A stretch of DNA of 64,000 bases. Source: a virus. Taxonomy: Duplodnaviria > Heunggongvirae > Uroviricota > Caudoviricetes. Shown in pieces: positions 6,168 to 22,583 of the stretch. Where the stretch lies: IMG/VR virus record IMGVR_UViG_3300029715_000189; one strand, 5' to 3'. Every line of letters starts with the position of its first letter. The first letter of the stretch is position 1. The position numbers were made by a program, and so were the translations under genes. The notes under the pieces were generated by a model. The model was not told where the DNA came from. It did not search any database and saw only the letters and a program-made list of their open reading frames with translations.

Positions 6168-9100
6168 TAATAATATAGATAGATATAATCCTGCTGCTAA
6201 AACCACTTACGAAGATGTGGCAAGGCAAAGGAAATTAGCTGAAGAAGAAAATTACACTCCGGCTACATTACCAGAGACGACAACGCCTCTGGTTCCTAAT
6301 TATATGCCTGGTGAAGGTGTGTATGCCCAACCTGAATTTCCGGATTACGCATCAAGGATAGCTGCTGCCGAATACGAAGAACCGTATATAGCCAAGGAGA
6401 TAAGCAACAGCTACTCGGAGGCACTGGCTCGTAACAGCTACAGGGGGGCTACACCTGCCGCGCCGCCCCTTAATCCCTATGGACCGAAGGTAAGTATCCG
6501 TGAAAGTCATCAGATGGGTAATGATGGGGTATGGCGTACAAAATATCCCAACTATATTCCGGGTATAAATAATGAGGATTATTATGCCAGGAGACAGAGC
6601 GGGCGGAGTAAGTTTTGGAATGGTGTAGGTAAATTCGCTTTAAAGTCTGTATTGTACGGTGCGGAAGGAGTTGTGTCATTGCCTGACAAACTTATCAATA
6701 TGGCATCTGAGGGAAGTTATAAAGCTGCGTTAAACACTGACCTGGATAAGTTTGTAGGTGATCTTGACCGGCGAATAGACATGCTTCTTCCCCATTATTA
6801 CAAGAAAGAGGTAGAAGATTATAATTTCTGTCAGAAGCTTTTTAAGGATACCGGTAATTTCTTATGGAATGACGTCCTTGGTAATGGTATGTCTTTTACC
6901 GTAGGAGCCATGATATCAGCGTACATAACCGGAGGACTTGGGGTTGGATCATTGGGCAATATAGGCGCTAAATTAGGTGGAAGAATCGGAGCTAAGTTGG
7001 CAGCAAGGCAAGCTGCCAATAGGGGCATAGGAAACCTTAAAAGCGTGTTTAACAACTATGTAAGAAAAGGAGTTGCCACCGGAAGAAATGTAGGGGAGGC
7101 GGCTAAGACCATGACGTTGCTGGCTACCAGTGCCGGATTCGAGTCATCGGTTGAAGCAAATTCTTTTATGAAGCAATCCGAGTCTGATTTCAAGGATTAT
7201 TATCGTAAGATTTATGGTCGTGATCCCAATGTAGAGGAAATGGCTGTTTTTCGTAATTCTAATGCTGATGCAGGTAGTGCTATATTTGCCGCCAATATGG
7301 GTATAGTAGGATTATCCAACTGGCTTCTTTTCGGTAAGTATATAGGGTTAGGAGGCAAGGCTATACCTGGGTTGGAAAAGAAGCTCAACAAGCATTTATT
7401 TGGATTAGGGACGGAAGTTGCGAAGCCGGGAGAGATGGCTATTAAAATAACCAATCCCAATATAGGACAGGAGATAGCAGGCAATGTTTTCAATATCATG
7501 AAAAGGCCGGTGTCCGAAGGCTTATGGGAAGAAGGATCTCAAGGTGCTGTTCAGAATGCGGCTGAGGAATATGTTAAGTCAAGATATGATAATGTAGCCA
7601 TGAACGGAGCCGTTGATGTTCTTGATGCTATTTCTGAAGGATTTAAAAAGCAATATACGTCTAAAGAAGGATGGACTGAAATAGGAATCGGTGCTATTAT
7701 CGGTTCTTTGTTTGGTATGAGGGAAGGCTTCTTTGGGGTTAAAGAGTATAGCAATAGTCAGATCTTGCTGGAAAGGCAAGTGAATGAATACAACAAAGCA
7801 TCTTCTAATCTTAACACGGCGGCTTTGAATACGTTGAAAAAATCAATGAGTTTAGGGCCTCAAGTTCGTTCCGATGCCCAGTCTATGACTGACAAGGAGC
7901 TTGATGATGCTATGTTTGAAAAGATGTCTATTGACAACCAAATGGGAACCTTAGAGGATTCGGCTGAAAATTTTAGGCAGATGATTGATATGATGCCTAT
8001 TTCGGAAATAGCCGAAGCTAATGGAATGTCTTTGGAAGAGGCAAAGAAATACAAGGATTCTATTATTGATAATTATAACAATCGTCTTTCGGATTTCAGA
8101 TCTGCCCAGAGTTTTGCCGAAGATCTTATAGGTGATGATTCTAAGATTGAGTTTAGGAAATACGTGGCTCGTAATGTCTTCCTTGGTCTTCAATCAGAAT
8201 CAAGAATGAAAGACATAGCTTCTGTCATAGAAACGCTTTCGGGGCAGCCTCGCGTGGCGGATGCTCTAAGTACGTTCTCCCGGCTGTCGGACAGGGCAAG
8301 GGAGCGGGCGATGGCTATCCGTGGCATACGGTCAAGGATAGAAGAACTTGAATCCGAAATAGAAGATCTTGCTACTCGTCCTCGTAACGTAGATGGAAAA
8401 AATCCACAAGCTGAATACATACAACGAAAAACCAAAGAATTGGAAAGTCTTAGAACCAATTACAACAATTCGTTGTCTGAGTTATCAACGTTAATAGGAA
8501 AAGAGTTTTCGATAGAAGAGTTGGTAAGTAAAACCGAATCTGTTTTATCATCACCTCTTTCTCCTATAAGTTCACAAGATGTGATAGAAGCCTATGATAC
8601 GCTTGTGGCTTTTGATGATTATTTTAATGTAAAATCAAGACAGGAAAAGAAGTTTACAGCCAAAGACAAAGCCATGAGATCCTTGGTAAATGAATACCGA
8701 AGAAGTTTGATGGACTATAGGAATATGAATAACTTCTTGTCTAAGATGCTTGATAAAAGATTCTTAGCTGAGGAAAACAGGGGGTTTTCAAAAGCGCTGT
8801 CTTCTCTATGGTCTACTCCTTATAAAGGGGATGACAAGGTTCCTGATTTTGCAGAGTCTAATAAAGTTGGTAAATATGACACTGATGAGGTAGTAGATCA
8901 AGCTGTGTCAGAAGGTAAGATTTCGGAAGACGAAGCTTGGACTATCAAGGCTTTTATGCATGCTCTTGATAAAGTAAGGGAAGATAGGATGAAGGAAGCA
9001 GAAGATGATATAAAAGAGTCACCGCTTACGGAGTCTGTATCGGATGAAGATTATGAGGCTGCTATGGATAATCCTATTATGGTTCCGGCCGTAAGGCAGT

Positions 9101-12100
9101 CTATAATTGATAAACTATATACAGGTAATGCCGATCTTCTTACTGAGAGAGAAAAAGATGTGTATGATAAATACAAACAAGATTTTGATGATTATGTATC
9201 GTCTTTGGGTGACAGTCCCGTTAATCTCATAAAATCATTATCTGAAAAGGCTGATAGGCTTACAAGTCCGAGATCTGTGTATGAGGATAATAAAGCTATT
9301 ATTGATATGGCTAAATCCAATTTGGAACCAGATCAAAGGAAGGAACTTGATGATGCTATTTCTTCGTATGTTGATATAATGAACAGACGGGACAAAGGGG
9401 AGAAAGTTGACGAAGATAAGCTTGCCGATTCGGTATTTACCATAGAAGATCTTGGCCAGGTTGGAAACATCACGGATCTCCTTCCTTATATCGAACAAAA
9501 CAGGATTATTGATAAAGGTCGTATTTCCGAATCTACGTTAAGTAATTTTGGGGAGGATGATGCTAATATAGATTCTCTTGTAAATGAATTAGACGAATCT
9601 GATAATACGCCGGGAGCCAATATAGATAGCGCCCAGAATCCAGAGACGTTGATGGTAAGAAGAATCTCCAATGACGGCAATGAAAGGTATGAAATTGCAG
9701 GTCTTAGAGCCGATAAATTTATATCTTCTATAAAATCATTGGTTCCTATTCAAATAAGCTCTGAAACGAACGCTAATGGCACTAAAAGGTATTCTCTTAA
9801 TATAGGTGGAGAAACGGCTACTATAATTGAATTGCCTTATCATGCGAGATGGTCTATAGACAAAGAATCGGCTCGTGTTCTTAACCGTTACACAGACGTG
9901 TCTATTCAGGACGTGGGTAATTCCTATTCTTTGGTTTATAAGCGTCTTGATTCAGATGAGTTGGTTCCGTACAGAACAGGTGTTGGATTCGGAGAGAATG
10001 AGGTAGATAAAATAGATCAGGAAGCATTATCTTCTTTGAAAAAAGGAGATAAGGTTAATCTCGAAATAGATGTAAATGATACCTATAATCAGTCTCTTTT
10101 TGCCGAATACAATGATGCTGTTCAGTCCGGCGATAAAAAAAGAATAGAATCTGCTGAGAATAAACTGGTGTCCAATATGGTTATCAAGGTCATGAGTGGG
10201 AACCGATTCGTTTCTGTTGTAAAAGCTGATACAGGAGGCATAGATGGTATAAGTAAAATAAGAAGAACGGCTTTCAACAAGTGGAAGAAGGATGCCGGCC
10301 GGTCGGCTACCATCGGCGTCGGCACGCATGTTGTTGCCCAGACCCTTCCCGGAAGACCGGTGTTTAACATGAAGGTGAACGGTCAAGGATATGGCCAGGT
10401 AGAAAATCTCCCCATTACCGAAAAAGGTGCTGAAAAAATATCTGATGTAGGATATGTATTAAATGGCAAAGTCGTGCTTAAGAACGGCTCTAAATACACA
10501 GGCTTCCCATTTGCTTATTCTATATTAAATGACAAGGGGAATAATTACAAAAATGTAAGAGTTCCGGTAGTCGTCATCAAAGGTAAAAACGGTCTTAATT
10601 ATCTTTTCCCAGTTAGCCTACGTTCTGTAGAATCAGAGGAAGGGCAGAAATGGATGTCTTTTATAGATATGCTGCTTGAATCTGGTGATTCTGAATTGCT
10701 ACAGATGGGTCAAGATGACATACAAGATCTTAATGCGTATCTAACCAAGTTAGGTCTTGATCCGGCTTCGTATCAAGTATCGTATTTGAATCCTATTTCA
10801 GGGCTTAGAAAAGCTCGTGAGGCTATAGAAAAATTATCTACGGTTCCTGATGTTGTTAAGTGGGTAGAAGATGAAAGCAGGAATGTGAAAGACATTGTGA
10901 CGTCTGAAGTAGAATCTGGAATAGATTTCGAAGGTGAGATGTTTGTCGCTCCTAAGATCAGGATTCAGTTTGGCAAATCATCTTCCAGACCTAAATCGCT
11001 TATAGAGGATGATCTTCCTTTCTCTGATGAGGGTAAGACCGTTACTTCTAAGGTAGAAGATGTGGAAGTTTATGAAGAGGAAATGCCAGAGGAAGGGGCT
11101 GCCCGGGAGACTCAGCCGGCGCCATTAGCTCAGCCGGCTCCTGCGGCACAAGCTACGCAGTCTTTACCTGGCAAGAAGCGTACCTCCAGGAAAAACTTCT
11201 CTCTTATGTTAAACGAAATAGAATCTCATATAGAAAAAGAAGGATTGCCGTCTTATGCTAATATTTTTGATTTTATAGCAAGGAAGATTGTAGGAGGTGA
11301 TTTGAGGTTTCTTCGTGAGAGAGGTAATCCTAAAAGCCTTAAGGAAGAAATGGGATTAGAACCTAAAGGAACAGTAGGTGATAAAATATCCACTCCTTCC
11401 AGTAAAGGTGGTAAGATCTTAGAAGAATACGTTTCTTGGCTTCGTTCTCAAACAGATCAGGTGGTGGTTGATTATGTTGGGCCAAGATCTGACGAACAAA
11501 TTATATCAGAGTTGAAAAACTTTTTGAAATATATTAATTTTGTTCCAAGCAAGGCTTTGAATTATTCTCTTAGAGTCAATGGCATGGATACCCTAAAAGA
11601 ATATGGCACAAAAGAGGAAGTAGAAAAAATGGAATCTGATATCAATAGTTTGGTTTCTAAAGTTTTGCCTACGGTGGATAATAAAACTGTAGAAGATGTT
11701 TCTACTGCAATAAAATCAAACAACTTGCCTGCCATATGGGAGCCCGTGGAAAGCCTTGATATGACAAACGAGGAAAAAATAGAGTTTTTGAATAACGTAG
11801 CAGATTTCCTTAGCGGCATACCAGAGCATGATGCTGTCGTGGAGTCTATAGAGTCAGAATCAGATAATATTTTAAATGATGGAAAAGAAGGAAGTGCAGA
11901 AGGCGGTGCAGTACGCACTGAGGAAGATGGCGATAAAAAGGGAGATGGAGAAGGCAAAGGACAATCCAGAACAAATGTCGAAGTTGAAAGAAATGTCGAA
12001 TTACCTGGATCTGAAGAAGGAAGAGTAGATAACTATAGGAAGAACGGAGATAAGTTCTCTGACATTGCTGAAGTTACTTTATGGCTACTTAGAAGGGCTG

Positions 12101-12804
12101 CCGGCATAACCTCTATCCCGGAAGGAGAAGAGGTTTATGTAGAGGGAGATGAGGTTAATAGTATTATGACCGATATGGAATCAAGGTATGGTATAGACAC
12201 CATCAATCACTCGCATACGGCTAAGGCTATAAGGGACCTTAACGGCGTATCAGGTTATAAAGTAGAATACGGCTCAACCTTTTTGACATACGATCCTTTT
12301 ATTAGAATATCCAATCTAAGGAAAGGATCTAAGGCTGCGAAAGACGAACCTCGTATATCCGAAGAGTCGCTTACTCACATATCAAGGGTGACAACCCCTT
12401 ATTTCCTGTACGGCGGCGATGAAGCATATACATCTGTTCCGGCTAAGGTAGAACCTATACCGGAGAAGATAATGGGTCGTAATGGCATTAAATTTGGTAT
12501 GAGTGTAGTCGAGTTAACCAAATTAGGGTACAAAAAAGCTGGTGGAAACTGGATATATAAATTCTATATGAACTCAGGTGTGTATGATTTGTATAATATC
12601 AGTACCGGTGAAGCGTTTAGGGCAAAACCGGATCTTGGAGTTAAGATAAGTTCCAGCGCATTCATCCGTTCTTTATCTCAATCTGGTAGGAAAATACAAA
12701 ATATGATTAGTAATATGAGCCAGGAAGAGATAGATAGGAATAAGAATCTTGTAGAAGGTTCTGATAATTCGGATTCGATAAATGAGTTAAATAAGGAGTG
12801 TTGA
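6160..12804 (+). CDS. Giant protein of 2214 aa. The N-terminal region has Gly-zipper-like hydrophobic segments (GGLGVGSLGNIGAKLGGRIGAKLAA), and there are long acidic and coiled-coil stretches. Putative ejected or internal virion protein. A crAss-like virion RNA polymerase role was not confirmed.
   Basis: A 6.6 kb ORF with no internal stops. Its size class matches the giant proteins of crAss-like podophages. No DxDGD-type RNA polymerase motif was found. Confidence 0.85.
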   Translation: MADNNIDRYNPAAKTTYEDVARQRKLAEEENYTPATLPETTTPLVPNYMPGEGVYAQPEFPDYASRIAAAEYEEPYIAKEISNSYSEALARNSYRGATPAAPPLNPYGPKVSIRESHQMGNDGVWRTKYPNYIPGINNEDYYARRQSGRSKFWNGVGKFALKSVLYGAEGVVSLPDKLINMASEGSYKAALNTDLDKFVGDLDRRIDMLLPHYYKKEVEDYNFCQKLFKDTGNFLWNDVLGNGMSFTVGAMISAYITGGLGVGSLGNIGAKLGGRIGAKLAARQAANRGIGNLKSVFNNYVRKGVATGRNVGEAAKTMTLLATSAGFESSVEANSFMKQSESDFKDYYRKIYGRDPNVEEMAVFRNSNADAGSAIFAANMGIVGLSNWLLFGKYIGLGGKAIPGLEKKLNKHLFGLGTEVAKPGEMAIKITNPNIGQEIAGNVFNIMKRPVSEGLWEEGSQGAVQNAAEEYVKSRYDNVAMNGAVDVLDAISEGFKKQYTSKEGWTEIGIGAIIGSLFGMREGFFGVKEYSNSQILLERQVNEYNKASSNLNTAALNTLKKSMSLGPQVRSDAQSMTDKELDDAMFEKMSIDNQMGTLEDSAENFRQMIDMMPISEIAEANGMSLEEAKKYKDSIIDNYNNRLSDFRSAQSFAEDLIGDDSKIEFRKYVARNVFLGLQSESRMKDIASVIETLSGQPRVADALSTFSRLSDRARERAMAIRGIRSRIEELESEIEDLATRPRNVDGKNPQAEYIQRKTKELESLRTNYNNSLSELSTLIGKEFSIEELVSKTESVLSSPLSPISSQDVIEAYDTLVAFDDYFNVKSRQEKKFTAKDKAMRSLVNEYRRSLMDYRNMNNFLSKMLDKRFLAEENRGFSKALSSLWSTPYKGDDKVPDFAESNKVGKYDTDEVVDQAVSEGKISEDEAWTIKAFMHALDKVREDRMKEAEDDIKESPLTESVSDEDYEAAMDNPIMVPAVRQSIIDKLYTGNADLLTEREKDVYDKYKQDFDDYVSSLGDSPVNLIKSLSEKADRLTSPRSVYEDNKAIIDMAKSNLEPDQRKELDDAISSYVDIMNRRDKGEKVDEDKLADSVFTIEDLGQVGNITDLLPYIEQNRIIDKGRISESTLSNFGEDDANIDSLVNELDESDNTPGANIDSAQNPETLMVRRISNDGNERYEIAGLRADKFISSIKSLVPIQISSETNANGTKRYSLNIGGETATIIELPYHARWSIDKESARVLNRYTDVSIQDVGNSYSLVYKRLDSDELVPYRTGVGFGENEVDKIDQEALSSLKKGDKVNLEIDVNDTYNQSLFAEYNDAVQSGDKKRIESAENKLVSNMVIKVMSGNRFVSVVKADTGGIDGISKIRRTAFNKWKKDAGRSATIGVGTHVVAQTLPGRPVFNMKVNGQGYGQVENLPITEKGAEKISDVGYVLNGKVVLKNGSKYTGFPFAYSILNDKGNNYKNVRVPVVVIKGKNGLNYLFPVSLRSVESEEGQKWMSFIDMLLESGDSELLQMGQDDIQDLNAYLTKLGLDPASYQVSYLNPISGLRKAREAIEKLSTVPDVVKWVEDESRNVKDIVTSEVESGIDFEGEMFVAPKIRIQFGKSSSRPKSLIEDDLPFSDEGKTVTSKVEDVEVYEEEMPEEGAARETQPAPLAQPAPAAQATQSLPGKKRTSRKNFSLMLNEIESHIEKEGLPSYANIFDFIARKIVGGDLRFLRERGNPKSLKEEMGLEPKGTVGDKISTPSSKGGKILEEYVSWLRSQTDQVVVDYVGPRSDEQIISELKNFLKYINFVPSKALNYSLRVNGMDTLKEYGTKEEVEKMESDINSLVSKVLPTVDNKTVEDVSTAIKSNNLPAIWEPVESLDMTNEEKIEFLNNVADFLSGIPEHDAVVESIESESDNILNDGKEGSAEGGAVRTEEDGDKKGDGEGKGQSRTNVEVERNVELPGSEEGRVDNYRKNGDKFSDIAEVTLWLLRRAAGITSIPEGEEVYVEGDEVNSIMTDMESRYGIDTINHSHTAKAIRDLNGVSGYKVEYGSTFLTYDPFIRISNLRKGSKAAKDEPRISEESLTHISRVTTPYFLYGGDEAYTSVPAKVEPIPEKIMGRNGIKFGMSVVELTKLGYKKAGGNWIYKFYMNSGVYDLYNISTGEAFRAKPDLGVKISSSAFIRSLSQSGRKIQNMISNMSQEEIDRNKNLVEGSDNSDSINELNKEC

Positions 12805-12806
12805 GT

Positions 12807-13337
12807 ATGAGAAGGAGATTTTTTAATGCTGCGGATAATTTTATGGGAGGATGTTATAATAAGTTATCTAATGAAGATATAAAAAGGCTTGGAGGAAAAA
12901 GACCTTATGTATGTCAGTTTAATAAAATTCATATACATATAGGGCCTGTATTAAAAGATCATGATTCCGATGTTAGTTACATAATGTTTGATAGTGATTG
13001 GAATTATGGTGGTTATGAATCTATGGTTTATCATCATAGCAATAATGGTATTTTTATATTAGGTGAAAACAAAATTGGTAACATAGAAGATCATATGCAA
13101 GATCTAACATATTGGTACGAATATGATCCAAGCATTAATGAAAATTATTGTTATTTTTATTATGAGGCTAATAACAGCGGAAATGCTATCAAGTTGAATG
13201 GTGAGTTTAGTAGTACCAGTACTGTTTTCAACATTCCCAGCTTGGAAGTCACCACTCTTCGTGATGGCAGTTTGAGTTTTCCGGAGATTTATATAGAAGG
13301 AGTTTGGGATCCGTCATTGTATAAGTCGGTTTTATAA
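12807..13337 (+). CDS. Small protein (about 176 aa) with an N-terminal MRRRFF motif, one of three MRRRF-family paralogs. Function unknown.
   Basis: AAGGAG lies 8 nt upstream of ATG 12807 (the track ORF 12798 starts at GTG). Genes A and B at 29.2-30.6 kb share the MRRRF N-terminus. Confidence 0.7.
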   Translation: MRRRFFNAADNFMGGCYNKLSNEDIKRLGGKRPYVCQFNKIHIHIGPVLKDHDSDVSYIMFDSDWNYGGYESMVYHHSNNGIFILGENKIGNIEDHMQDLTYWYEYDPSINENYCYFYYEANNSGNAIKLNGEFSSTSTVFNIPSLEVTTLRDGSLSFPEIYIEGVWDPSLYKSVL

Positions 13338-13362
13338 TTAACTTTGCAAAAAAGTTAATTAT
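13334..13362. repeat. Perfect inverted repeat with 12 bp arms (ATAATTAACTTT gcaaa AAAGTTAATTAT) that overlaps the stop of the preceding gene, 107 bp upstream of TnpB#1.
   Basis: Read directly from the sequence. It could be a terminator-like hairpin or a subterminal IS-end hairpin. There is no U-tract. Confidence 0.5.
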
Positions 13363-13468
13363 TATGATGCAAAATAATATCAAAAATAATTAATTCTATT
13401 TCATAATCCAAATGAAATATGTGTCTTAGATACATGGTTTGTAAATAGCATTTAATGTATTAAAAATA

Positions 13469-14701
13469 ATGAGATTAGTATATAAGTTCAACATAGGGCA
13501 AAATGAAAATATATCATCTTTGTGCAAGATTAGCAACAACTTGTACAACCAAGCATTGTATATTTTCAGAGAAACACTTTCTAAAGAAGATAAGTGGTTA
13601 TCCTATTTTGAACTTGATGATATCATGAAGAATACCAAGAACTTAGATGGAGACATTAATTACAGATTACTAAAGGCGCAATGTTCTCAACAAGTTCTTC
13701 GTATTCTTGATAAAAATATTAAAAGTTATTACAAATCGGTCCAAGATTACAAAAAACATCCAACTAAGTATAAAGAAAAACCTGGTCTTCCAAATTACAA
13801 AAAGAGAGGTTATGAGTTCAATTTGTATTACACGAGTCAGAGTTGCAAAATAAAAGATGGGAAAATAATCCTATCAAAAGATATTTCAATACCCATTCCT
13901 CAATATGAGAAGTATTCTGATTTGATAAAAGATTTCAAACAGATTAGAATAAAACCATTAGCATGTGGATATAAAATAGAAATCATTTATGAGGTAAAAG
14001 ATGCTGAAGTATCTAAAGGTAGAGAAGAGAAGATTGCTTCAATCGATTTAGGGATTGATAATCTTGCAACTCTTATCAGTGAAGATTTTACTGTTCTATT
14101 TAGTGGTAAATTTGTTAAATCATACAATAAGCTATTCAATAAGACATTAGCCAAATTAAATAGTATCAAAGATTTACAAAAGATAAAAGGAACAACAAGA
14201 CGAATAAAGAAATTATATTATGATAGAGAACAGTACATAGAAGATGTCTTTCATAAAATCAGTGGAAAGATAGTTAATTTACTTATCGATTCCAAGATAA
14301 CAAAATTAATTGTAGGCTACAACAAGGGATGGAAACAAAATGTAAATATAGGTAAAAAGAATAATCGAAAGTTTACCCAAATCCCTTTTGCGAGATTGGT
14401 GAGTTACTTAGAATATAAATGTGAATTATCTGGTATTGAAATAGTTATTCATGAAGAGTCATATACTTCAAAATGTGATTCATTAGCATTTGAGAAGATA
14501 GGAAAACATGAAAACTATTTAGGAAAGAGGAAGAACCGAGGATTGTTTCAATCCTCGGTAGGAAAACTCATAAATGCAGACGTAAATGGAGCATTAAACA
14601 TTATGAGAAAAGTAGTCGGTGATTCCTGTGAATCAATTCGTAGGATAATCGATAGAGGGTTATTGTTTAACCCGGTGAGGATTACGAATGTATTTTGTTA
14701 A
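13469..14701 (+). CDS. tnpB: TnpB-like RuvC nuclease (IS200/IS605 OrfB / IS1341 type) of 410 aa. The RuvC triad is intact but the canonical CxxC...CxxC zinc finger is missing. No tnpA lies adjacent.
   Basis: The N-terminus YKFNIGQNE...LYNQAL matches the TnpB N-terminal pattern. RuvC-I is SIDLGIDN, RuvC-II is IVIHEESYTSKC, RuvC-III is INADVNGALNI. The ZF segment is replaced by a Cys-free stretch (DSLAFEKIGKHENYLGKRKNRGLFQSSVGK). Confidence 0.85.
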   Translation: MRLVYKFNIGQNENISSLCKISNNLYNQALYIFRETLSKEDKWLSYFELDDIMKNTKNLDGDINYRLLKAQCSQQVLRILDKNIKSYYKSVQDYKKHPTKYKEKPGLPNYKKRGYEFNLYYTSQSCKIKDGKIILSKDISIPIPQYEKYSDLIKDFKQIRIKPLACGYKIEIIYEVKDAEVSKGREEKIASIDLGIDNLATLISEDFTVLFSGKFVKSYNKLFNKTLAKLNSIKDLQKIKGTTRRIKKLYYDREQYIEDVFHKISGKIVNLLIDSKITKLIVGYNKGWKQNVNIGKKNNRKFTQIPFARLVSYLEYKCELSGIEIVIHEESYTSKCDSLAFEKIGKHENYLGKRKNRGLFQSSVGKLINADVNGALNIMRKVVGDSCESIRRIIDRGLLFNPVRITNVFC

Positions 14702-14767
14702 GAAGGTGCATTCTGAAACTTATAAAGAAATGTAATAAGTTTTATTGAATTTAATATTTTTCATAAC

Positions 14768-17026
14768 ATGGGTGTCAAATGTCAGATAGAAAAAAAGGAA
14801 AATGAAATAAAACGGGTTAAGGCTCCTAACGGGGAGCCTTCCGTTCTTTACGAAAGTGCTTTAAAAGTATTAGGAAACAGCGAGCGGGCTCTTCAGGTAT
14901 GGGCTAAGGCTTACACTCCTGGTTTTTTGTCGTATTACGGTCATTGGAATAACCCGGCTCCAGGGGAGATGTTTAACACCGATCCCAATGGCGAACCTCT
15001 TTTAGAAGATGTGCTGTCGTATATGAAGCGTCAGACTTATTTTGCTGATCCTTTAACGGCTCAGGATGTTAAGGATGTAAGGGATTTCCTTTTGTCTACT
15101 CATTATTTTTTCAATGCGTCTTCATTGTCTAATGCTATTCTCTTCGATTTTTATGTAGATGGCAGTTTGATACTGAATGAGCAGAAATTAAGGAGATCCG
15201 GTTTGTATGATGAAACAGAAATAAGTCGTATTTTATCCGATCCTTCTGTTTTAAACGAGGTTTCGACTTCCATGAGAAAGTTAATAGATTCTTCTATTAA
15301 CGAACATGATAGGGAAAAAGATAATTATTTTATGTCTATTGACTATCAGTATGGTCCTATTGTTTACAAGGAGGGAGTGTTTAACCAATTTGGTAAAAAA
15401 GTACCATATAATCCTTCTGAGCTTTATTATGCTATGCGTAAAACAGTAGCCGGCATAAAGAACTTTTCTGAATTTTCATCTGCTTTTGAATCGTTGAGAA
15501 ATTCATATCCTGAACTGGTTGAGAAATTCGTTTCTGATAAAGAATTTGCCGAATCTATGTTTGATGAGTTCTCATCTACGAATAAGATTCCGGTAATAAA
15601 CATAGAAGGGGATGATGTGGTGGAAGGCAAGAGAAGATCTTTGTCTAAGCTACAAGATCTTTCTTATTACAATCCTGGCAAAATAGAGTTCCTAAGAGCT
15701 CGTATATCAGCTTATTTACATAGGGTTAATGCCGACACCGAATCCGATTTAAGAAGCATGATATGGGATATAGAAGAGGCTTGTACGTGGTTTGGCATAG
15801 ATATAATAGGGACATCGGAAACTTATGATGGCACAGAAGAATCTTTGAATAAGATAGATAATTTGATGCTGGATCTTGATATTTATGTGGCCAGGCATAA
15901 TGATGTAAATTATGCTCCAACGCTGGCATCTTCTATAGATGATGTTCTTGGTGATAGTACAGACTATTATTTTGGATTATTGCCGGAGTATATGGATAAT
16001 TTGAATATCGTTTATTCTGAATCCGATATAGACCCAGTAGAAGCATTTGAGAAACATTCATTGCTTAAGGTAGGAGATAATCTATATCAAAGGATCAGCA
16101 AAGATGATCTTAACGAGATGTATCAAATATCAACAGTATTAGCCAAGCACAACCTAACTCATTTTTCTACTAAAATATATCCTGAATCTTGTTTTAAGAA
16201 CGGCGTTTTGGATAAAGAGAAAGTACGGAATGTAGATAACAATACGCTCATGGATTCCATTAAAAAATACGTCAGATCGTTCATGGATTCTCAGAACACG
16301 GAGGACATGATAATGACCAGGATGGCGTTTGGTCACCCGGCGGTACTTGACGTTCCTTACGTGGATGTGGATCGGGAGTATAGTCGATACATGAACAAAA
16401 AACAAGATAGCGAAAACCCATTATCCTTATTCGATTTATACCAATCTTACCTTGACAACAAACTCCATAAAACAAAATTATATGATAATGCCTATAAGTA
16501 TCTTGACTTTAAACCTGGTCCATCTTTGGGCCTTATTTCTGATGATCCTGATATTTTGAAATCAATAGAATTATCTTTATCTGGAAAAGACAGGTTGATG
16601 TTGTTTGATTATAGCATGACCAGTACCGACCCTTCTTTATCAGAATTGTTTTATTTGGAGAAGTATGACCCTTCGTATGCCGGGAATGATTTTGAACACT
16701 ATTTTTACACCAGGCACCCGTATTTGTTAAAAGAAAAATCGGGCCCTAATATCGTAGAGCAAGATGGTGTTATAACAGCCGAAGGTATTTATGATAATTT
16801 TATAAGAGTAGGTAATAAGATATGGTCTAAAGTAAGCGAGAGTAGTTCTGGCTCTATCTACCAAAATCTGACAGGAACCGAATCAGAGGTGAAATACGAT
16901 TCTACTCAGAAGGCTAAGACGGTAGAAACCGATTACGCTCCATACCAAAACAGATCTGGCTTGACGCAAGACATGACCGTAAGCAAGCCTGAATTGGATG
17001 ATCTTAATAAATTGGAATGCAGGTAA
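14768..17026 (+). CDS. Hypothetical protein of 752 aa with acidic, Asp/Tyr-rich composition. No recognisable domain.
   Basis: A long ORF immediately downstream of TnpB#1. A terminator hairpin follows at 17073-17101. Confidence 0.8.
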   Translation: MGVKCQIEKKENEIKRVKAPNGEPSVLYESALKVLGNSERALQVWAKAYTPGFLSYYGHWNNPAPGEMFNTDPNGEPLLEDVLSYMKRQTYFADPLTAQDVKDVRDFLLSTHYFFNASSLSNAILFDFYVDGSLILNEQKLRRSGLYDETEISRILSDPSVLNEVSTSMRKLIDSSINEHDREKDNYFMSIDYQYGPIVYKEGVFNQFGKKVPYNPSELYYAMRKTVAGIKNFSEFSSAFESLRNSYPELVEKFVSDKEFAESMFDEFSSTNKIPVINIEGDDVVEGKRRSLSKLQDLSYYNPGKIEFLRARISAYLHRVNADTESDLRSMIWDIEEACTWFGIDIIGTSETYDGTEESLNKIDNLMLDLDIYVARHNDVNYAPTLASSIDDVLGDSTDYYFGLLPEYMDNLNIVYSESDIDPVEAFEKHSLLKVGDNLYQRISKDDLNEMYQISTVLAKHNLTHFSTKIYPESCFKNGVLDKEKVRNVDNNTLMDSIKKYVRSFMDSQNTEDMIMTRMAFGHPAVLDVPYVDVDREYSRYMNKKQDSENPLSLFDLYQSYLDNKLHKTKLYDNAYKYLDFKPGPSLGLISDDPDILKSIELSLSGKDRLMLFDYSMTSTDPSLSELFYLEKYDPSYAGNDFEHYFYTRHPYLLKEKSGPNIVEQDGVITAEGIYDNFIRVGNKIWSKVSESSSGSIYQNLTGTESEVKYDSTQKAKTVETDYAPYQNRSGLTQDMTVSKPELDDLNKLECR

Positions 17027-17072
17027 TTTTTGTGTACATATATATAGTTTTTTCATAGTTATAATCTGGGAA

Positions 17073-17101
17073 GTGAGGCTTGTGAAAGTCTCACTTTTCT
17101 T
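17073..17101 (+). terminator. Putative rho-independent terminator (aGTGAGgcttgtgaaagtCTCACt followed by TTTTCT).
   Basis: A stem-loop plus T-run lies 47 nt after the stop of the 752-aa gene. Confidence 0.45.
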
Positions 17102-17522
17102 ATATATGTACGTATATCAATAACATACAAGAAAAGTTAGATTTTCATTGTTTATGAATTATTTTTGTTAAATTTGCGATATTAGTTTCAGGAAGGGATT
17201 ATAGAAATAGGAAAAAGTAAGAACCGGACGTAACTAATAACAGTAGGAAATGAGAATCAGTACCATCAAACGTAACAACAGCATTCATATTATGTATAAA
17301 AACATTATGAATGATTTAGGTCAATTAAGAACTGTAGTTTCAAAATCCTATATTTATAATCTGATACGAAATCAAACCGGATTAAGTATTAGAACTATAT
17401 CCCATGTACTTAACCATACCAAAGAATAGGATACAGATTCTTTGTGAAAAGCATACATTTTCATACATTTGTGTGTTCTTTAGTTTTTAGATTTAAGTTT
17501 TTCATGGTATTAGTTTAGAGAT

Positions 17523-17548
17523 CAGGGCTCGCAGTGATGCGGGCCCTG
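17523..17548 (+). other. Strong hairpin (CAGGGCtCGCAgtgaTGCGgGCCCTG) inside a 740 bp non-coding region. It may be regulatory or terminator-like.
   Basis: About 10 paired bases and GC-rich in an AT-rich context. Followed by GTTTGATTT. Confidence 0.4.
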
Positions 17549-17725
17549 GTTTGATTTACAGCGCTTTACCCAAAATAGGAAAAGCGAAAGTTGCTGATTA
17601 TCAAGTTTTCCCCTTAAATGGGAAAAATTACTCATTGTGTATTATTTTTCTATCTTTTCTGAAAATACTTCTCTTCTATAGGAAATAAACACACCCATAT
17701 TCCACCCTGCAATCATGATCTTTGT

Positions 17726-17744
17726 TACGTGCTTCATGCACGTA
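17726..17744. promoter_or_regulatory. Perfect palindrome TACGTGC-ttcat-GCACGTA, an operator-like site about 27 nt upstream of the ATG at 17771.
   Basis: 7 bp arms with a 5 bp spacer, read directly. Its position fits a repressor or activator site for the GC-rich islet. Confidence 0.35.
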
Positions 17745-17763
17745 TGTTTAACAATTAAATACT
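17744..17763 (+). repeat. 20-mer ATGTTTAACAATTAAATACT, repeated exactly at 57425-57444.
   Basis: An exact 20 bp match in two places. A chance match is unlikely. Both copies are in the same orientation although the local genes are on opposite strands. Confidence 0.6.
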
Positions 17764-17770
17764 ATAAATT

Positions 17771-17992
17771 ATGGGTGGTGATAAAATCGTCCTTTTAGAT
17801 GGAGCCGGGGCTAACGGCGGTGGTGCAGCAGCTACCAACGGTCTTCTTTCAATGATTCCCGGCATGTTTGCTAATTTGATAGGTGGTAATAAAATGGATC
17901 CGAATCTGGTGGCGGCTTTGATGAACGGTCGTAACAACCAGGACGGTTTCGGTGGGGCTAACGGATGTTGCAATAACAACGCTGCTGTCTGA
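17771..17992 (+). CDS. Small Gly/Asn-rich protein of 73 aa (MGGDKIVLLDGAGANGGGAAATNG...GCCNNNAAV). Function unknown.
   Basis: The ORF has markedly higher GC than its surroundings. It is the first gene of a compositionally distinct islet. Confidence 0.55.
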   Translation: MGGDKIVLLDGAGANGGGAAATNGLLSMIPGMFANLIGGNKMDPNLVAALMNGRNNQDGFGGANGCCNNNAAV

Positions 17993-18015
17993 TTTTATTA
18001 AGAAAGGAGGCTAAT

Positions 18016-18429
18016 ATGGCTTGTGTTTCTAAAATAGGATCGTTGTATGAGATGGTTACGAAGAATGTTATTGTCAGTACGACAAATACAGTCTTCGGTA
18101 TTAACCCACGGGCTTGGATCGCCCTTCCGTGTGAGGGTCTTATCCTTCTTAAGATAAGGCAAGTAGCCCCTACAGCCGGAAGTGCTCTACCGGTACAGAT
18201 TGCGGTCCCGGCAAACAGCACAGTTTCAACAGTAGGAGCCGACACCTGTTGCCCGGTTACGGGAGTGAATGTCGTGAACCCTGTTAACGTAGCTGTCACG
18301 GGTGCTGCTATGGTAAATGGCACAGAACGCCTTCTGTACTTCAATAAAGTTCGTGGCGTGTTAAGATTAATGGATTGCTGTGTTCCAGTAGCGGCAGCCC
18401 AGGCGTCTGAAGTTGAAGCAGGTAAATGA
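18016..18429 (+). CDS. Hypothetical protein of 137 aa, Val/Ala/Thr-rich with CC pairs. AGGAGG lies upstream.
   Basis: ORF with an AGGAGG Shine-Dalgarno (aagaaAGGAGGctaatATG). GC-rich islet. Confidence 0.6.
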   Translation: MACVSKIGSLYEMVTKNVIVSTTNTVFGINPRAWIALPCEGLILLKIRQVAPTAGSALPVQIAVPANSTVSTVGADTCCPVTGVNVVNPVNVAVTGAAMVNGTERLLYFNKVRGVLRLMDCCVPVAAAQASEVEAGK

Positions 18430-18479
18430 TTTCAGTAGGGTGATGAAGATCATCACCCTATTTTCACCTAACTAATATT

Positions 18480-18974
18480 TTGATCATGTTTTCAGATTTG
18501 AAGAAAGGGTTTCAGGTACATACCCTTGATACTAATACAGTACCTAAATACGAATTGGGAAAGGTAGTAGCCGTATCCGAACCCAGGTATCTTCCTCCTC
18601 AGCCAGGTCAGTATCAGGCGATGCAGACCCGCGTGGTGGATCTGACGGTAGAGCTCACTGGCGAAACCAAGACCTATACGGTCCCGGAATCCCAGAATGT
18701 GGCTAAGGCTATGGGCATAACATTATCTACCAGCATAGATCCGATTATGAACGAACTGAATGCCATAAAAAACACCAGTCAAGACATAATAGACAGCGTA
18801 GATGCCCATCGTGCCAAGATAGAGGCTTGTGAATCTATATTAGAAGATATCAATCCGGCATTCAAGCAAACGAGAGAGCAGGATCGTAAAATAGCTGGTA
18901 TAGAAAATAAGGTGAATGACCTTACTGATTCATTCGAAGATTTAAAGAAGTTAATTGTAGAACGTTTGAAATAA
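18480..18974 (+). CDS. Hypothetical protein of 164 aa with a coiled-coil C-terminus.
   Basis: ORF in the GC-rich islet. No domain recognised. Confidence 0.6.
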   Translation: MIMFSDLKKGFQVHTLDTNTVPKYELGKVVAVSEPRYLPPQPGQYQAMQTRVVDLTVELTGETKTYTVPESQNVAKAMGITLSTSIDPIMNELNAIKNTSQDIIDSVDAHRAKIEACESILEDINPAFKQTREQDRKIAGIENKVNDLTDSFEDLKKLIVERLK

Positions 18975-18981
18975 GTATAAT

Positions 18982-19359
18982 ATGATAGTATATGATTTAA
19001 ATTCAGGACACAGAGAATATCCTGGATATGACGAGATAGAAGACAGACGAGGTGGAGGCAGAGGCAGAAGCCGGCGTTCTGATGGGACGTACATGGAGTA
19101 CGGACATGGGTTCCTTCCTCCTTACGATCATTATGGTATGCATGAGAAGATGAAGGAAATGGAAGAACGCGAAAACGAGCTGGAAGAAAGGGAAAGAAGG
19201 CTCGAAGAGCGCGAACGTCGTCATGAAATGGAGGACCGGGAATACCGGAGGATGGGTTACGAATCCTACCCGACCGATTACTATGGAGACGACAGATACT
19301 ACGGTGACGGGCCTCAGATGCGCAGAGGTCGCGGACGTGGCAGAGGTCGTTCTTATTGA
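18982..19359 (+). CDS. RG/RGG-rich, Glu/Arg-repeat protein of 125 aa. It ends at a TGA that is in frame with the next ORF (19453-19746), so readthrough or a fusion is possible.
   Basis: RGRGRGRGRS and EERERRLEERERR low-complexity repeats are present. The frame stays open for 31 codons after the TGA up to ATG 19453. Confidence 0.6.
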   Translation: MIVYDLNSGHREYPGYDEIEDRRGGGRGRSRRSDGTYMEYGHGFLPPYDHYGMHEKMKEMEERENELEERERRLEERERRHEMEDREYRRMGYESYPTDYYGDDRYYGDGPQMRRGRGRGRGRSY

Positions 19360-19452
19360 GGAGCAGACGCAGAGGATCCAGCTTATCAGAAATATGTAGA
19401 TACTTACGGCTACCATTTTTCTAATGCTCTCGCTGATGAGGCGGTAAAGAAG

Positions 19453-19746
19453 ATGGTCAACGTCGATGGATCCAAGAGGATCTGGAAGCAGCCGGAAATA
19501 AAAGATATTTTTGAAAAGTGCGGAGCGAAGAAGCCGGATAAAGCGACATGGGGCGATGTCCAATATGTCTTTGCAATGTACTATTCGGATGGCTTTCCGA
19601 AGGTCTTCAAATGTGAGAACGAGTTGGTGAAAGCTACGTTAATGTATTTGGATGATCCGGATGCTCCCGAAGGAGTAGCCTTTATAAGATGGCTTGCCGT
19701 GCAAGATTACCTCGGCGAAAAAATAAACTGGAAGGATCTGACCTGA
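19453..19746 (+). CDS. Hypothetical protein of 97 aa. It may be the C-terminal part of the preceding RG-rich protein if TGA 19357-19359 is read through.
   Basis: Same frame as 18982..19359. GAGG lies 12 nt upstream of the ATG, so it could also be an independent gene. Confidence 0.5.
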   Translation: MVNVDGSKRIWKQPEIKDIFEKCGAKKPDKATWGDVQYVFAMYYSDGFPKVFKCENELVKATLMYLDDPDAPEGVAFIRWLAVQDYLGEKINWKDLT

Positions 19747-19851
19747 GATCCAGACCCAGGTCCTTCCGGTGGTGCGGGAGCCATAGTAAAAAATATGATT
19801 CCCGCATTCCCGTTTTTCCCGTTTGGAAAAAAAAGAATAAAAATGTTATAC

Positions 19852-19888
19852 CGGTCGGCGGGCAATAGAATACCCGTGGCCGGTTTGT
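19852..19888 (+). terminator. Imperfect GC-rich hairpin (CCGGTCGGCGGG...CCCGTGGCCGG) followed by TTTGTTT. Putative terminator after the GC-rich islet.
   Basis: Read directly. The stem has wobbles and one bulge. Confidence 0.3.
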
Positions 19889-19911
19889 TTCACATAACTT
19901 TTTTTTTGGAC

Positions 19912-20079
19912 ATGAATATAGCACACGAATCTAAATCGAATAAAACCCCCTTGTATTTAATAGGAGAGTTGATTGGCGTACCGAATACGGTTATGGACTC
20001 AGCATTGCATGAACTGAAAGATAGAATAGACAAAGACCCTGAATGGGTGATTATATACCACTTTACACCAAAAGCGTAA
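19912..20079 (+). CDS. Small protein of about 55 aa (MNIAHESKS...IIYHFTPKA). Its C-terminus is encoded by the conserved dispersed repeat.
   Basis: First ATG in the track ORF 19795..20079. It ends in ...YHFTPKA* inside repeat copy R1. Confidence 0.45.
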   Translation: MNIAHESKSNKTPLYLIGELIGVPNTVMDSALHELKDRIDKDPEWVIIYHFTPKA

Positions 20080-20098
20080 AGTAATACACATTTATACG
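20047..20098 (+). repeat. Dispersed repeat copy R1 (GTGATTATATACCACTTTACACCAAAAGCGTAAAGTAATACACATTTATACG).
   Basis: Near-identical copies lie at 22011-22057 (same orientation) and 59699-59749 (inverted). Confidence 0.7.
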
Positions 20099-20152
20099 GA
20101 AATTCGTACCGGGTTACATCAAAACCCTCTACCTTCTGGTAACATCGTTACA

Positions 20153-21357
20153 TCAAAGGATTCTTTTTTCCGATTTACGGATGATGTTAAAAGCACCATT
20201 GATATCAGCATTAATTGTCTTACCAGAAGAGGTTTTAAACAATCCTCGTTTAATCCTTCTTCCTTTGTAAGATTCATGTTTGCAAATCCGTTCATTATCT
20301 AAAAAGCTACATTTTGAAGTATAAGATTCTTCAACGATCTTAACATTAATACCTTCTAATGTAGCTTTATACGATATCATACTGATAAACGAATTAAAAG
20401 GAATAGATACAAAGTTCTGATTATTACGCTTTCCAATATTGATCTCTTGTTTCCGGCATTTGTTATGACCGATTATGATCGTATTAATACCATTGGAAAC
20501 TACGTGATTAACCAATATCCTACTTGCCTTATGCAGATAATCTTTGATCTTGTTATTCCTTTTGTTGGTTAATGACCTGATTTGTTTTGAAATTTGTTTG
20601 TTATCTTTTAATTTAGATTTTAAGAATGCTAACCTTTTGTTATAATATTGGTTAATAGACTTTAGTGGCCTACCATTGATGATAAAACAAGAACCGGTGT
20701 TTGAAACACAAGATGCTAAATTATCCAATCCTATGTCGATGCCAAGATAGTTCCCATTATCGGACATAAGATTCTTTTCCTTCTTATTGTAAACTATTTC
20801 AAGAACAATATACCCATTCTTAGGAATGAATCTAAGTTGTTGAATATTTTGCTTGTTAGTTCTTGTTGTAAAGGAAAACTGTTTTGGTAACTTAACAATG
20901 CCTTGTTTTATCCATTTTTGAGAAAAAGCATTTGTTGCAAAAAAACAGCAGGAAACAAACCACCCTTGTTGAGATACCTTGGCATTCTTACTTCCTCAGA
21001 ATACTCACCTCTATTCTTTTTATTAAAGAGATTGAAGAAAGATTTAAAGTTTCTATCAACCATCATCAACACTTGTTGAGCAACCGGTGCTGGTAAAGCA
21101 CGATAGTCAACATCATTTTCTGTTCTTAACTTCTTTTCGAGAGAATAGTAGTTTAGGTACTTATACTTTACAGTATTATCATCCTTGTATTGAAAATAAT
21201 ACTGTCTAACAACATATAACCCTTTATTGTATAAGTTTTTACACTTATGCAATAGATCATAAGGTTCATTGTAATAAACAGAACTTGGTTTGATCGTATG
21301 TTGTTCGACTAATCTCATGACATAAATATAGAAATTATTATTTATATATGAAAACAA
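20153..21357 (-). pseudogene. tnpB: Second TnpB-like gene (TnpB#2), split into an N-terminal ORF (20908-21357) and a C-terminal ORF (20153-20767 plus an upstream extension). The break is a -1 frame change at a T7 run. It may be a programmed frameshift, a pseudogene, or a homopolymer sequencing error.
   Basis: The C-terminal ORF carries GIDIGLDN, VEESYTSKC and NADINGAFNI. About 55% of residues match TnpB#1 over the RuvC region by eye, and the zinc finger is absent here too. The frames switch within minus-strand U UUU UUG (plus-strand A-run 20939-20945). A -1 slip gives ...PAVFFATNAFSQKWIKQG..., which is colinear with TnpB#1 ...NLYYTSQSCKIKDG... Confidence 0.8.
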
Positions 21358-21564
21358 ATTGGCGTATTTGTGGTGTAAAGTTGTATATAATTACCTAAAG
21401 ATGTTAAAAATTGGCTCGAATCTTTACCCAAGATCTGAACCTATTTTTTCAATACCAGGCCCGATGCGATTTTAACGTATCGGGTTTTTATTTTAATTCA
21501 TATTGTTTTATTTTAAATCTAATTAATTCATGAATGTCGTACATTTGTTGAAAAAGTATTCTAT

Positions 21565-21792
21565 ATGGAAAATAAGGAAGATTACGTTGGTTACGAAGAT
21601 CAAGAACTGTGTAACCGGTATTACAAAGAGGCTGAAGCCATGAGGCAAAAGCAGGACTGGCCTCGGCTTAGGGCTGTCTCTGCTCCGGCTAAGGGAACCC
21701 CATCGCCCGGCTGGGGTCAGCTTGGACGTGGAAATGATGTCCGTGTTAAGTATGTTAGTATCAACTCAGGATTGGGAGGAGATAGGTTATGA
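21565..21792 (+). CDS. Hypothetical protein of 75 aa.
   Basis: ORF with moderate GC. Its stop overlaps the next start (ATGA). Confidence 0.45.
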   Translation: MENKEDYVGYEDQELCNRYYKEAEAMRQKQDWPRLRAVSAPAKGTPSPGWGQLGRGNDVRVKYVSINSGLGGDRL

Positions 21793-22007
21793 CCGTAGAA
21801 GAGTTAGCCAGTAAAAGATACGGTGGCGAATTTGTTTTTATGTTTGGCCATCTTGAAGGTAGAACAAGATTCGTTTTTGAATGCTTTGATCCCAGACCTG
21901 ATCACGAAGGTAAAAACACTTATATGGTTTCCTATTTTGAAAAGGGACTTCATAGAAGAGATGTGGTAGATGTACCGTGTTATATGAATGTTTTGCAAAA
22001 ATCGTAG
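21789..22007 (+). CDS. Hypothetical protein of 72 aa. Repeat copy R2 follows its stop immediately.
   Basis: Translationally coupled to the previous ORF. Confidence 0.45.
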   Translation: MTVEELASKRYGGEFVFMFGHLEGRTRFVFECFDPRPDHEGKNTYMVSYFEKGLHRRDVVDVPCYMNVLQKS

Positions 22008-22010
22008 GTA

Positions 22011-22057
22011 GTTATATACAACTTTACACCAAAAGCGTAAAACAATATACATTTTTA
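22011..22057 (+). repeat. Dispersed repeat copy R2 (AGTTATATACAACTTTACACCAAAAGCGTAAAACAATATACATTTTTAT).
   Basis: It aligns with R1 and R3. Here the ...IYNFTPKA* reading frame sits just after a TAG stop. Confidence 0.7.
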
Positions 22058-22077
22058 TCACCTGAACAAATAATAAA

Positions 22078-22106
22078 GTCGGGCATGTAACTTGTCCGAC
22101 TTTTTT
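22078..22106 (+). terminator. Rho-independent terminator (GTCGGGCAtgtaacttGTCCGAC followed by TTTTTT).
   Basis: A stem-loop with a T6 run. Confidence 0.6.
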
Positions 22107-22120
22107 CGTATATTTGCGTT

Positions 22121-22557: not shown

Positions 22558-22583
22558 TTGTCTCATAACAAAAATGTTTTACT

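Follow-up and report, generated by a model that had tools for sequence, protein, structure and literature searches.

A TnpA-less, apparently IS607-type element with a zinc-finger-less TnpB at a variable site in an epsilon crAss-like gut phage

A 64,000-nucleotide stretch of phage DNA from IMG/VR (record IMGVR_UViG_3300029715_000189; its whole length is referred to here as the window) carries an intact gene for a zinc-finger-less TnpB protein, TnpB#1. We propose that this gene belongs to a non-autonomous element of the IS607 family, one that has lost tnpA and whose TnpB and guide RNA (omega-RNA) most likely home and spread among co-infecting phages, and we regard this as the probable explanation of the locus. 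The proposal draws on features read directly from the sequences: the family membership of the protein, the boundaries of the element, its polymorphism among phage genomes, purifying selection on tnpB, covariation in the RNA, and the match of the guide to an empty site. An earlier note on this DNA had raised the possibility of a domesticated RNA-guided nuclease or regulator, an interpretation that the comparative data speak against.

The closest GenBank record to the window is phage csAssE-Sib (OR575929.1, 151 kb, from the human gut; L001 among our loci). The two are 87 to 98% identical over the aligned segments of the structural-gene block surrounding the insertion, and on this sequence evidence the source of the window is an epsilon crAss-like gut phage. 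The paper describing csAssE-Sib reports two TnpB-family "transposase" genes that not all members of the genus possess (PMC11054128). A megablast search of INPHARED (GenBank phage records) with the TnpB#1 element returned no match; of the two TnpB genes in the window, the second, TnpB#2, alone has a GenBank phage match.

Boundaries, mobility and family of the element

Comparison with 76 related IMG/VR phage loci (L004-L079) defines the two ends of the element. On the right, likeness ends at 14769 in every context (...TTTAATATTTTTCATAACAT, then the boundary) and is followed by about 26 different flanks; the end lies one base before the 14770 given in the earlier note. On the left, likeness begins at 13364 (AT/GATGCAAAATAAT...), after at least 12 different flanks. 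The empty site survives in csAssE-Sib as TATCACT-AT-GGGTGTCAAATG (TATCACT-AT-GGGTGTC), and occupied genomes read CACT-AT-(element)-AT-GGGTG. No direct repeat longer than AT was found at the junctions of 12 sites. A single AT is thus common to the target and both junctions, which points to scarless insertion and is the mark that a serine recombinase leaves when it works at a core dinucleotide. This core is AT in the group to which the window belongs and in a related group A, and GT at the right end in a related group B. The TnpB#1 element has no perfect terminal inverted repeat; two 22-nt subterminal segments, at 13378-13399 and at 14744-14765 near the right end, are 82% complementary.

The same comparison reveals a unit that moves. 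Counted by distinct right flanks across the 76 loci, the element is present at about 26 independent sites. When the exact junctions of the window site were sought in IMG/VR, the site was empty in 66 contigs and occupied in 18, and several genomes that are empty there carry the element elsewhere. Premature stops interrupt about 11 of the 76 copies, roughly one in seven. Judged from these sequence patterns, the profile is that of an active or recently active selfish element and not of a domesticated gene.

The identity of the recombinase is apparent from relatives. In five loci (L035, L043, L050, L057 and L058), a 201-aa IS607 serine-recombinase TnpA (NF033518, 169 bits) is encoded directly upstream of tnpB and overlaps it; the tnpB genes of these loci are 79 to 90% identical to that of TnpB#1 and share its right end. 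Decayed or truncated TnpA remnants persist in 9 further loci, and most relatives in groups A and B, at about 60% identity, have TnpA. None was found in the window, where the best tblastn match of the family's own TnpA has E = 0.02. This copy therefore appears to be a deletion derivative that would depend on TnpA supplied in trans. The earlier note was right that a TnpA partner is missing; its assignment to the IS605 type gives way to these relatives, whose sequences place the element in the IS607 type, in which a serine recombinase acts on double-stranded DNA. Two other loci, L002 and L003 (4001-5287), contain an in-frame 428-aa fusion open reading frame (ORF) that joins the N-terminal 144 residues of TnpA to a C-terminal part of TnpB. 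It is a deletion derivative, and gene callers report it as one Resolvase+OrfB protein.

Left- and right-end hairpins are not expected of an IS607-type element. The check for IS605-like hairpins at the ends found a sole strong hairpin, at 13334-13362, and it lies outside the element. The earlier note had described this sequence accurately as a perfect palindrome (12-bp arms at 13334-13345 and 13351-13362), but the left-end position that it assigned to the hairpin does not stand. The palindrome belongs to the phage flank, ends one base before the element's first base, 13364, and shares bases with the upstream ORF's stop codon. It is present in some, but not all, genomes with the element at the window site, the others having a different 17-nt flank there, and it is missing from all other insertion contexts. 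We therefore rejected it as a left-end hairpin on the flank comparison. To our knowledge, IS607 elements do not use left-end hairpins of this kind.

The flanks also suggest a target-adjacent motif (TAM). Among 12 independent left flanks, 10 end in AT before the core AT, giving NATAT; the window insertion site itself exists in two variants, ATTAT and ACTAT; and the flanks of the TnpA-carrying groups A and B end in TAT as well. In all, left flanks end in ...TAT at about 20 of 24 independent sites, from which we predict ...TAT as the TAM. On the other side, G follows the right end at 15 of the roughly 26 sites, so that the terminal AT of the element rebuilds an ATG. At 8 sites, including that of the 752-aa gene that starts at the right end of the TnpB#1 element in the window (ORF 14768-17026), the rebuilt ATG opens a co-oriented ORF of at least 90 aa, and at several other sites an ATG lies 1 to 10 nt downstream of the right end. 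From these flanks, the element tends to insert at start codons, where the guide would then be the 5' end of the downstream coding sequence.

Two further observations concern the ends. Four loci (L023, L040, L042 and L062) share one left flank and have right flanks that differ as a nested series, a pattern consistent with deletions adjoining the right end. In L004, the right-end terminus is duplicated in tandem over 13 bp (TTTTTCATAACAT twice).

Canonical IS607 elements have GG ends, insert at GG and use G-rich TAMs (PMC13565253). Their TnpA excises the element scarlessly, through a circular intermediate formed at the core dinucleotide, and TnpB restores it (bioRxiv 10.1101/2023.11.20.567912; PMC13565253). 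A GG core was not found in the lineage described here, the ends of which are AT or GT, and we read the AT core from the sequences as a lineage-specific change in target choice and not in architecture. Set beside IS607 of Helicobacter pylori and the IS607 elements and IStrons of Clostridium botulinum (Zedaveinyte et al.), the lineage agrees in the overlap of tnpA with tnpB in its autonomous members, in scarless insertion without target duplication and with one dinucleotide common to target and junctions, in the placement of a predicted omega-RNA scaffold over the 3' end of tnpB and the right end with the right flank as putative guide, and in the commonness of TnpA-less derivatives. It differs in its core (AT, or GT at the right end of one subgroup, in place of GG) and in its predicted TAM (...TAT in place of TGGG, AGGAG or GAGGG; PMC13565253). 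It differs, too, in the partly complementary 22-nt subterminal inverted repeat of its ends, in a scaffold that matches no Rfam family, and in its replicon, a virulent-type crAss-like phage. Neither a Y1 HUH TnpA partner nor subterminal hairpins inside the element, the marks of IS200/IS605, were found in it. We also considered an IStron and dropped the idea, given that the Rfam search returned no group I intron family and that the left end is only 105 bp long.

TnpB#1 and its predicted omega-RNA

Profile searches place TnpB#1 inside the TnpB family, in agreement with the earlier note. Pfam OrfB_IS605 (PF01385) matches at 1e-19 (71 bits), Cas12f1-like_TNB (PF07282) matches at 2e-12 (47 bits), and the NCBIfam model guided_TnpB (NF040570) covers residues 10-381 with 160.4 bits against a cut-off of 100. 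The NCBIfam "exception" models IS200_TnpB and IS607_TnpB both score far under their cut-offs on TnpB#1, and hence the domain name OrfB_IS605 does not decide the type of element. The Cas12f2 model (NF049972) reaches 49 bits against a cut-off of 450, and no clustered regularly interspaced short palindromic repeat (CRISPR) array was found in 9000-24000, where the sole repeat array is a 21-bp coding repeat at 19160. With no adjacent array, TnpB#1 does not qualify as a type V CRISPR protein (Cas12f).

The three RuvC catalytic residues picked out by the earlier note, D193 (in IDLGIDN), E330 (in HEESYTSKC) and D371 (in NADVNG), are unchanged in 41 diverse relatives and align with the DLG, E/D-x-YTS and NAD motifs of Cas12f and TnpB structures. 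Reaching those structures required a profile of the 41 sequences, which matches both Cas12f and TnpB; a search of the PDB with TnpB#1 alone matched only a designed nuclease. An AlphaFold2 model of TnpB#1 (predicted local distance difference test score [pLDDT] 92.8, predicted template modeling score 0.86) finds its best PDB matches in ISFba1 TnpB (8iaz, E 2e-16), AsCas12f and ISDra2 TnpB. Compared with ISDra2 TnpB and Cas12f (8EXA, 8H1J, 8J12, 7WJU), the modeled fold appears alike (Foldseek E 1e-12 to 1e-16), the RuvC D/E/D residues fall at equivalent positions and the size is similar, at about 400 aa, whereas sequence identity is 14 to 17%, RuvC-III reads NADxN in TnpB#1 and DRDxN in the others, and their C4 (four-cysteine) zinc finger in the TNB domain is replaced in TnpB#1 by KR..RGLF.S..G with a single Cys. 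By its NADVNG motif, TnpB#1 falls into the clade that Altae-Tran et al. 2023 call "derived TnpB" (NADxN). We conclude from these comparisons that TnpB#1 is an intact TnpB with a full RuvC triad, for which nuclease activity is predicted. The gene is under purifying selection, the ratio of nonsynonymous to synonymous substitution (dN/dS) against relatives being 0.05 to 0.13.

The zinc finger is absent, as had been claimed: the segment from RuvC-II to RuvC-III reads SKC-DSL...KRKNRGLFQSSVGKLINAD, without CxxC...CxxC, and C336, the first of the four canonical cysteines, is the sole survivor. The claim that this loss is a family trait is borne out far beyond phages. The Cys-poor pattern recurs in 127 of 128 full-length representatives (50%-identity clusters, 35 to 56% identical to TnpB#1), the remaining one having CxxC...CxxC, and no CxxC is present in the segment in any of the 80 best matches from cellular genomes. 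These cellular relatives are found in Prevotellaceae (46 to 58% identity) and then in Asgard and methanogenic archaea, cyanobacteria, Chloroflexota and Firmicutes. AlphaFold2 models this segment as a small beta-hairpin module with pLDDT of at least 92. The segment is thus an ordered, clade-wide replacement, neither a lesion nor a peculiarity of phages.

Loss of the zinc finger has been described for some large TnpB branches (Altae-Tran et al. 2023, PNAS, PMC10691335), and its absence accordingly does not bar membership in TnpB. Those branches resemble the present one as large lineages without the C4 motif that keep their catalytic residues, are mobile and are associated with serine recombinases. 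In one zinc-finger-less clade of that study, RIIIr-4, His replaces the RuvC-III Asp; TnpB#1, unlike it, keeps Asp371 and must belong to a different zinc-finger-less branch. The loss marks a very large TnpB clade across bacteria and archaea, a known trait that is no sign of domestication.

Over the last part of tnpB and the right end of the element, the sequence bears the marks of a structured RNA, in the region (about 14600 to 14770) where the earlier note had expected one (Table 1). Synonymous diversity over the last 33 codons of tnpB is 0.103, against a gene mean of 0.232, and lies below that of all other 33-codon windows (0 of 344 as low); the 68 nt from the tnpB stop to the boundary are highly conserved. 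RNAalifold finds four helices in close relatives, and the minimum-free-energy fold of the window sequence alone has the same helices (z = -3.8). With a covariance model built from nine close sequences, 35 distinct sequences were aligned, some of them from relatives about 60% identical in protein. In that alignment, which was fitted to the structure of the model, 93.9% of cells pair, as against 74% when shuffled and 35 to 46% when partners are slid, and 28 of 35 pairs have changed on both sides among the 35 sequences. The substitutions are visible in unaligned sequences as well: GGGTTA/TAACCC becomes GGGCG/CGTCC or GGGCA/TGTCC, and the hairpin at the stop codon is replaced wholesale. Covariation and suppressed synonymous change together support an omega-RNA scaffold here. 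Two analyses were set aside. A plain MAFFT alignment of the divergent omega-RNAs placed the variable hairpin wrongly and failed to recover helices 3 and 4, and the covariance-model alignment was used instead; RNAalifold pairings of 14545-14551 with 14739-14745, and of AAAAGTA with TAYTTTT, proved to involve one-sided changes or G-G mismatches.

The 20 nt that follow the scaffold would, by analogy, be used as its guide. All 20 positions of this sequence, GGGTGTCAAATGTCAGATAG, find their match at the csAssE-Sib empty site (L001 position 7029), where the sequence stands after ACTAT. At the occupied locus, the guide-matching sequence follows the right end ...AACAT, where the empty site has ...CTAT. 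Because the right end is AACAT and not TAT, the donor should not be a target of its own guide, provided that the TAM is TAT.

Table 1. Features of the TnpB#1 element and its junctions in the window
Feature	Coordinates	Strand	Remarks
Apparently complete, non-autonomous TnpA-less IS607-family element	13364..14769	+	1406 bp including AT at both junctions; sharp homology limits
Left junction ATTAT	13361..13365	+	Flank 13361-13363 plus core AT 13364-13365; predicted TAM position
Left end, 105 bp	13364..13468	+	In all TnpA-less copies; subterminal repeat 13378-13399
tnpB ORF	13469..14701	+	410 aa; RuvC triad D193/E330/D371; zinc-finger segment keeps only C336
Predicted omega-RNA scaffold, 162 nt	14608..14769	+	Four helices, one across the tnpB stop; AT-rich 3' tail to the right-end boundary
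Right copy of core AT	14768..14769	+	With G14770, the ATG start of the 752-aa gene
Predicted omega-RNA guide	14770..14789	+	Right flank; 5' part of ORF 14768-17026

Phage surroundings and the second TnpB element

Directly upstream of the TnpB#1 element, a 179-aa ORF (12820-13337) is unrelated to the 192-aa ORF at the matching position of csAssE-Sib (L001 6419-6984), the two having only their first ~22 bp in common. From this comparison, a variable gene cassette adjoins the insertion site. One locus, L014, combines the element with a left flank of the csAssE-Sib type. Downstream, a long hairpin or palindrome 3' of the 752-aa ORF (17085-17145), with weak microRNA-family matches on both strands in a relaxed Rfam search, is probably a terminator. 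Two segments of csAssE-Sib are missing from the window: about 1.1 kb with an annotated antirepressor gene (window 17558-17647 versus L001 9813-10918) and about 0.8 kb within an annotated spike/glycoprotein gene (window ~17960-17970 versus L001 11239-12018).

TnpB#2, at 20045-21395 on the minus strand, belongs to a separate element that is neither IS605- nor IS607-like. In the C-terminal half, its identity to TnpB#1 is 42%, and its zinc finger has been lost too. The earlier note had cited TnpB#2 for the same loss; this part of its claim stands, but the copy in the window is a frameshifted pseudogene, with +2 and +1 indels relative to an intact 408-aa copy elsewhere in csAssE-Sib. The same indels led us to reject stop-codon reassignment for it. 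Elements of this type (L080 1501-2849 and L325-L404 among the loci) measure 1347 bp, contain tnpB only and end in 24-bp terminal inverted repeats (GGTGATTATATACAACTTTACACC), and at least 587 relatives of the family are present in IMG/VR. An 8-bp duplication in the flanks, perfect or nearly so, was found at 17 of 43 independent sites and in 0 of 215 controls. The duplication always starts with T, and a T-W-A motif stands directly 5' of the duplicated 8-mer; lying 8 bp from the left end, this motif would let a guide composed of the duplicated 8-mer and downstream sequence match naive sites. The window copy has no duplication and has lost 2 bp of target.

The same 24-bp inverted repeats flank IMG/VR elements of 2.8 kb (L429 9431-12260) and 3.5 kb (L418 1973-5482) that encode a 307-aa IS1595-family DDE transposase (PF12762, 145 bits) and no tnpB. 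Within the IS1595 family, 8-bp duplications are known as the signature of the IS1016 group (PMC10045372). The common inverted repeats and the 8-bp duplications lead us to view TnpB#2 as a tnpB/omega-RNA cassette inside IS1595-type ends, probably mobilized in trans by an IS1595-type transposase; the literature searched yielded no paper on a functional association between TnpB and IS1595.

Two other traces of this family lie in the window. At 59428-59750 (+) there is a 323-bp miniature that resembles a miniature inverted-repeat transposable element, with both TnpB#2-type inverted repeats and no tnpB. It keeps an omega-RNA-like scaffold (covariance model R1, 39.5 bits at 59631-59782), and its flanks read TTCTAATT(g) on one side and TTCTAATT on the other. 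By its sequence it is an orphan guide-RNA gene, the cognate TnpB#2 in the same genome being broken. At 22003-22072, a solo end of a TnpB#2/IS1595-type element (GGTAGTTATATACAACTTTACACCAAAAGCG..., end at 22007) coincides exactly with a 2.2-kb gap relative to csAssE-Sib (L001 14711-16947, including a DUF2829 gene), which looks like a deletion adjacent to the insertion sequence.

Proposed homing and rival explanations

TnpB proteins of IS605 and IS607 elements cut the element-free allele under the direction of their guide, after which the element is copied in by recombination (PMC13565253; bioRxiv 10.1101/2023.11.20.567912). By extension from this established mechanism, we infer omega-RNA expression, a TAM, cleavage and homing for the TnpB#1 element, together with mobilization in trans. 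A transcript that crosses tnpB and the right end and continues into the flank would give rise to an omega-RNA whose 3' guide is the first 16 to 20 nt of the neighboring gene (14770 onward). TnpB with this RNA would find an element-free genome in which the left flank (...TAT, the predicted TAM) abuts the guide match, and would cut that site. Recombinational repair from an element-bearing genome would then copy the element in, allowing both its retention after excision and its spread among co-infecting phages. Movement to new sites would require TnpA supplied in trans by autonomous copies in related phages, and the serine recombinase would swap strands at the AT core, scarlessly and without target duplication.

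Several considerations weigh against this interpretation. Production of the omega-RNA and the positions of its 5' and 3' ends are predictions, and the pair counts come from an alignment that follows the model. No Rfam omega-RNA, RAGATH-18 (linked to IS607) or group I intron family matched, either at gathering scores over the whole window or at E <= 5 over 13300-21500, so the family search urged by the earlier note came back empty even at relaxed thresholds. The TAM was predicted from only about 24 flanks. We identified no biochemically tested zinc-finger-less TnpB of the TnpB#1 clade, and with AT or GT in place of the GG core, extrapolation from CboTnpA/TnpB is indirect. The 18 occupied contigs, finally, could reflect vertical descent instead of homing.

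Domestication, in which TnpB has become an RNA-guided nuclease or regulator in the service of the phage and the gene no longer moves, would fit the lack of TnpA in the window, the intact ORF under purifying selection and the occupancy of the window site in 18 contigs. We nevertheless judge it very improbable: the same 1.4-kb unit with the same ends is present at about 26 unrelated sites, 66 contigs lack it at the window site, the closest phage sequenced being one of them, about 11 of the 76 copies are pseudogenes, and autonomous TnpA-bearing copies exist. The guide, moreover, differs at each site, since it is the local flank. The nuclease-dead, TnpB-like TldR repressors, some of them phage-encoded, likewise pair a TnpB homologue on a phage with the absence of a transposase, but their RuvC is inactivated (PMC13565253), their guides are fixed against promoters and they are immobile. 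Unlike those known domesticated regulators, the element described here has an intact RuvC, takes its guide from the local flank and moves. At the opposite extreme, the locus might be an inert relic, a decaying insertion-sequence fragment with no present activity. Such a relic would account for the missing TnpA, the frameshifted neighbor TnpB#2 and the many broken copies in the family, but it agrees poorly with a full ORF retaining all catalytic residues, a dN/dS of about 0.1, two intact element ends and an omega-RNA region with compensatory changes and suppressed synonymous change, and we think it slightly less credible still. The least credible of all, to which we give almost no weight, is a single-strand transposon of the IS200/IS605 type whose left-end hairpin is the 13334-13362 palindrome. 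The Pfam name OrfB_IS605 and the perfect palindrome upstream invite that reading; the palindrome, however, is outside the element and absent from all other contexts, the partner in relatives is a serine recombinase and not a Y1 HUH enzyme, and both NCBIfam "exception" models fall far below their cut-offs.

A variant of the proposed homing, unlikely in our estimation though well ahead of those three, keeps the mechanism and reassigns the benefit to the phage: the element would be an inter-phage weapon. In competitors that co-infect without the insertion, it would cut the 752-aa gene at its 5' end and thereby exclude their markers. T-even homing endonucleases exclude the markers of competitors. 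The guide points to the beginning of a large, conserved phage gene with a 20/20 match to the empty allele, many phages of the same population have that empty allele (66 contigs), and about one-third of the independent insertions fall exactly on a start codon, which places guides in coding sequence. From sequence alone, however, a weapon is inseparable from selfish homing, and pseudogene copies are frequent and sites are scattered instead of concentrated in essential genes.

We return, then, to the TnpA-less IS607-family element that homes among phages. A fuller version of that account can be offered as a tentative possibility, one that we would sooner doubt than adopt. It envisages a phage-adapted IS607 lineage whose core shifted from GG to AT and whose TAM shifted to ...TAT and which hence prefers to land at, or shortly ahead of, AT-rich start-codon contexts of phage genes (the ATG being rebuilt at about one-third of sites). 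Among crAss-like phages that infect together, the zinc-finger-less TnpB would then serve as an RNA-guided gene drive and cut element-free genomes at the 5' end of the neighboring gene.

As a TnpB, the protein described here is a routine find, and the value of the locus lies in the clean natural system that it offers. Hundreds of near-identical phage genomes either have or lack the 1.4-kb element at particular sites, and with a known empty allele, RNA-guided homing, or gene drive, between viruses is directly testable. The locus documents an IS607 lineage with an AT rather than a GG core and an AT-rich predicted TAM, and a compact, zinc-independent TnpB of 410 aa with a defined 162-nt predicted scaffold may interest those engaged in genome editing. 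It also holds a lesson for annotation: a TnpB that is TnpA-less, zinc-finger-less and in a phage should not, for those reasons, be read as domesticated.

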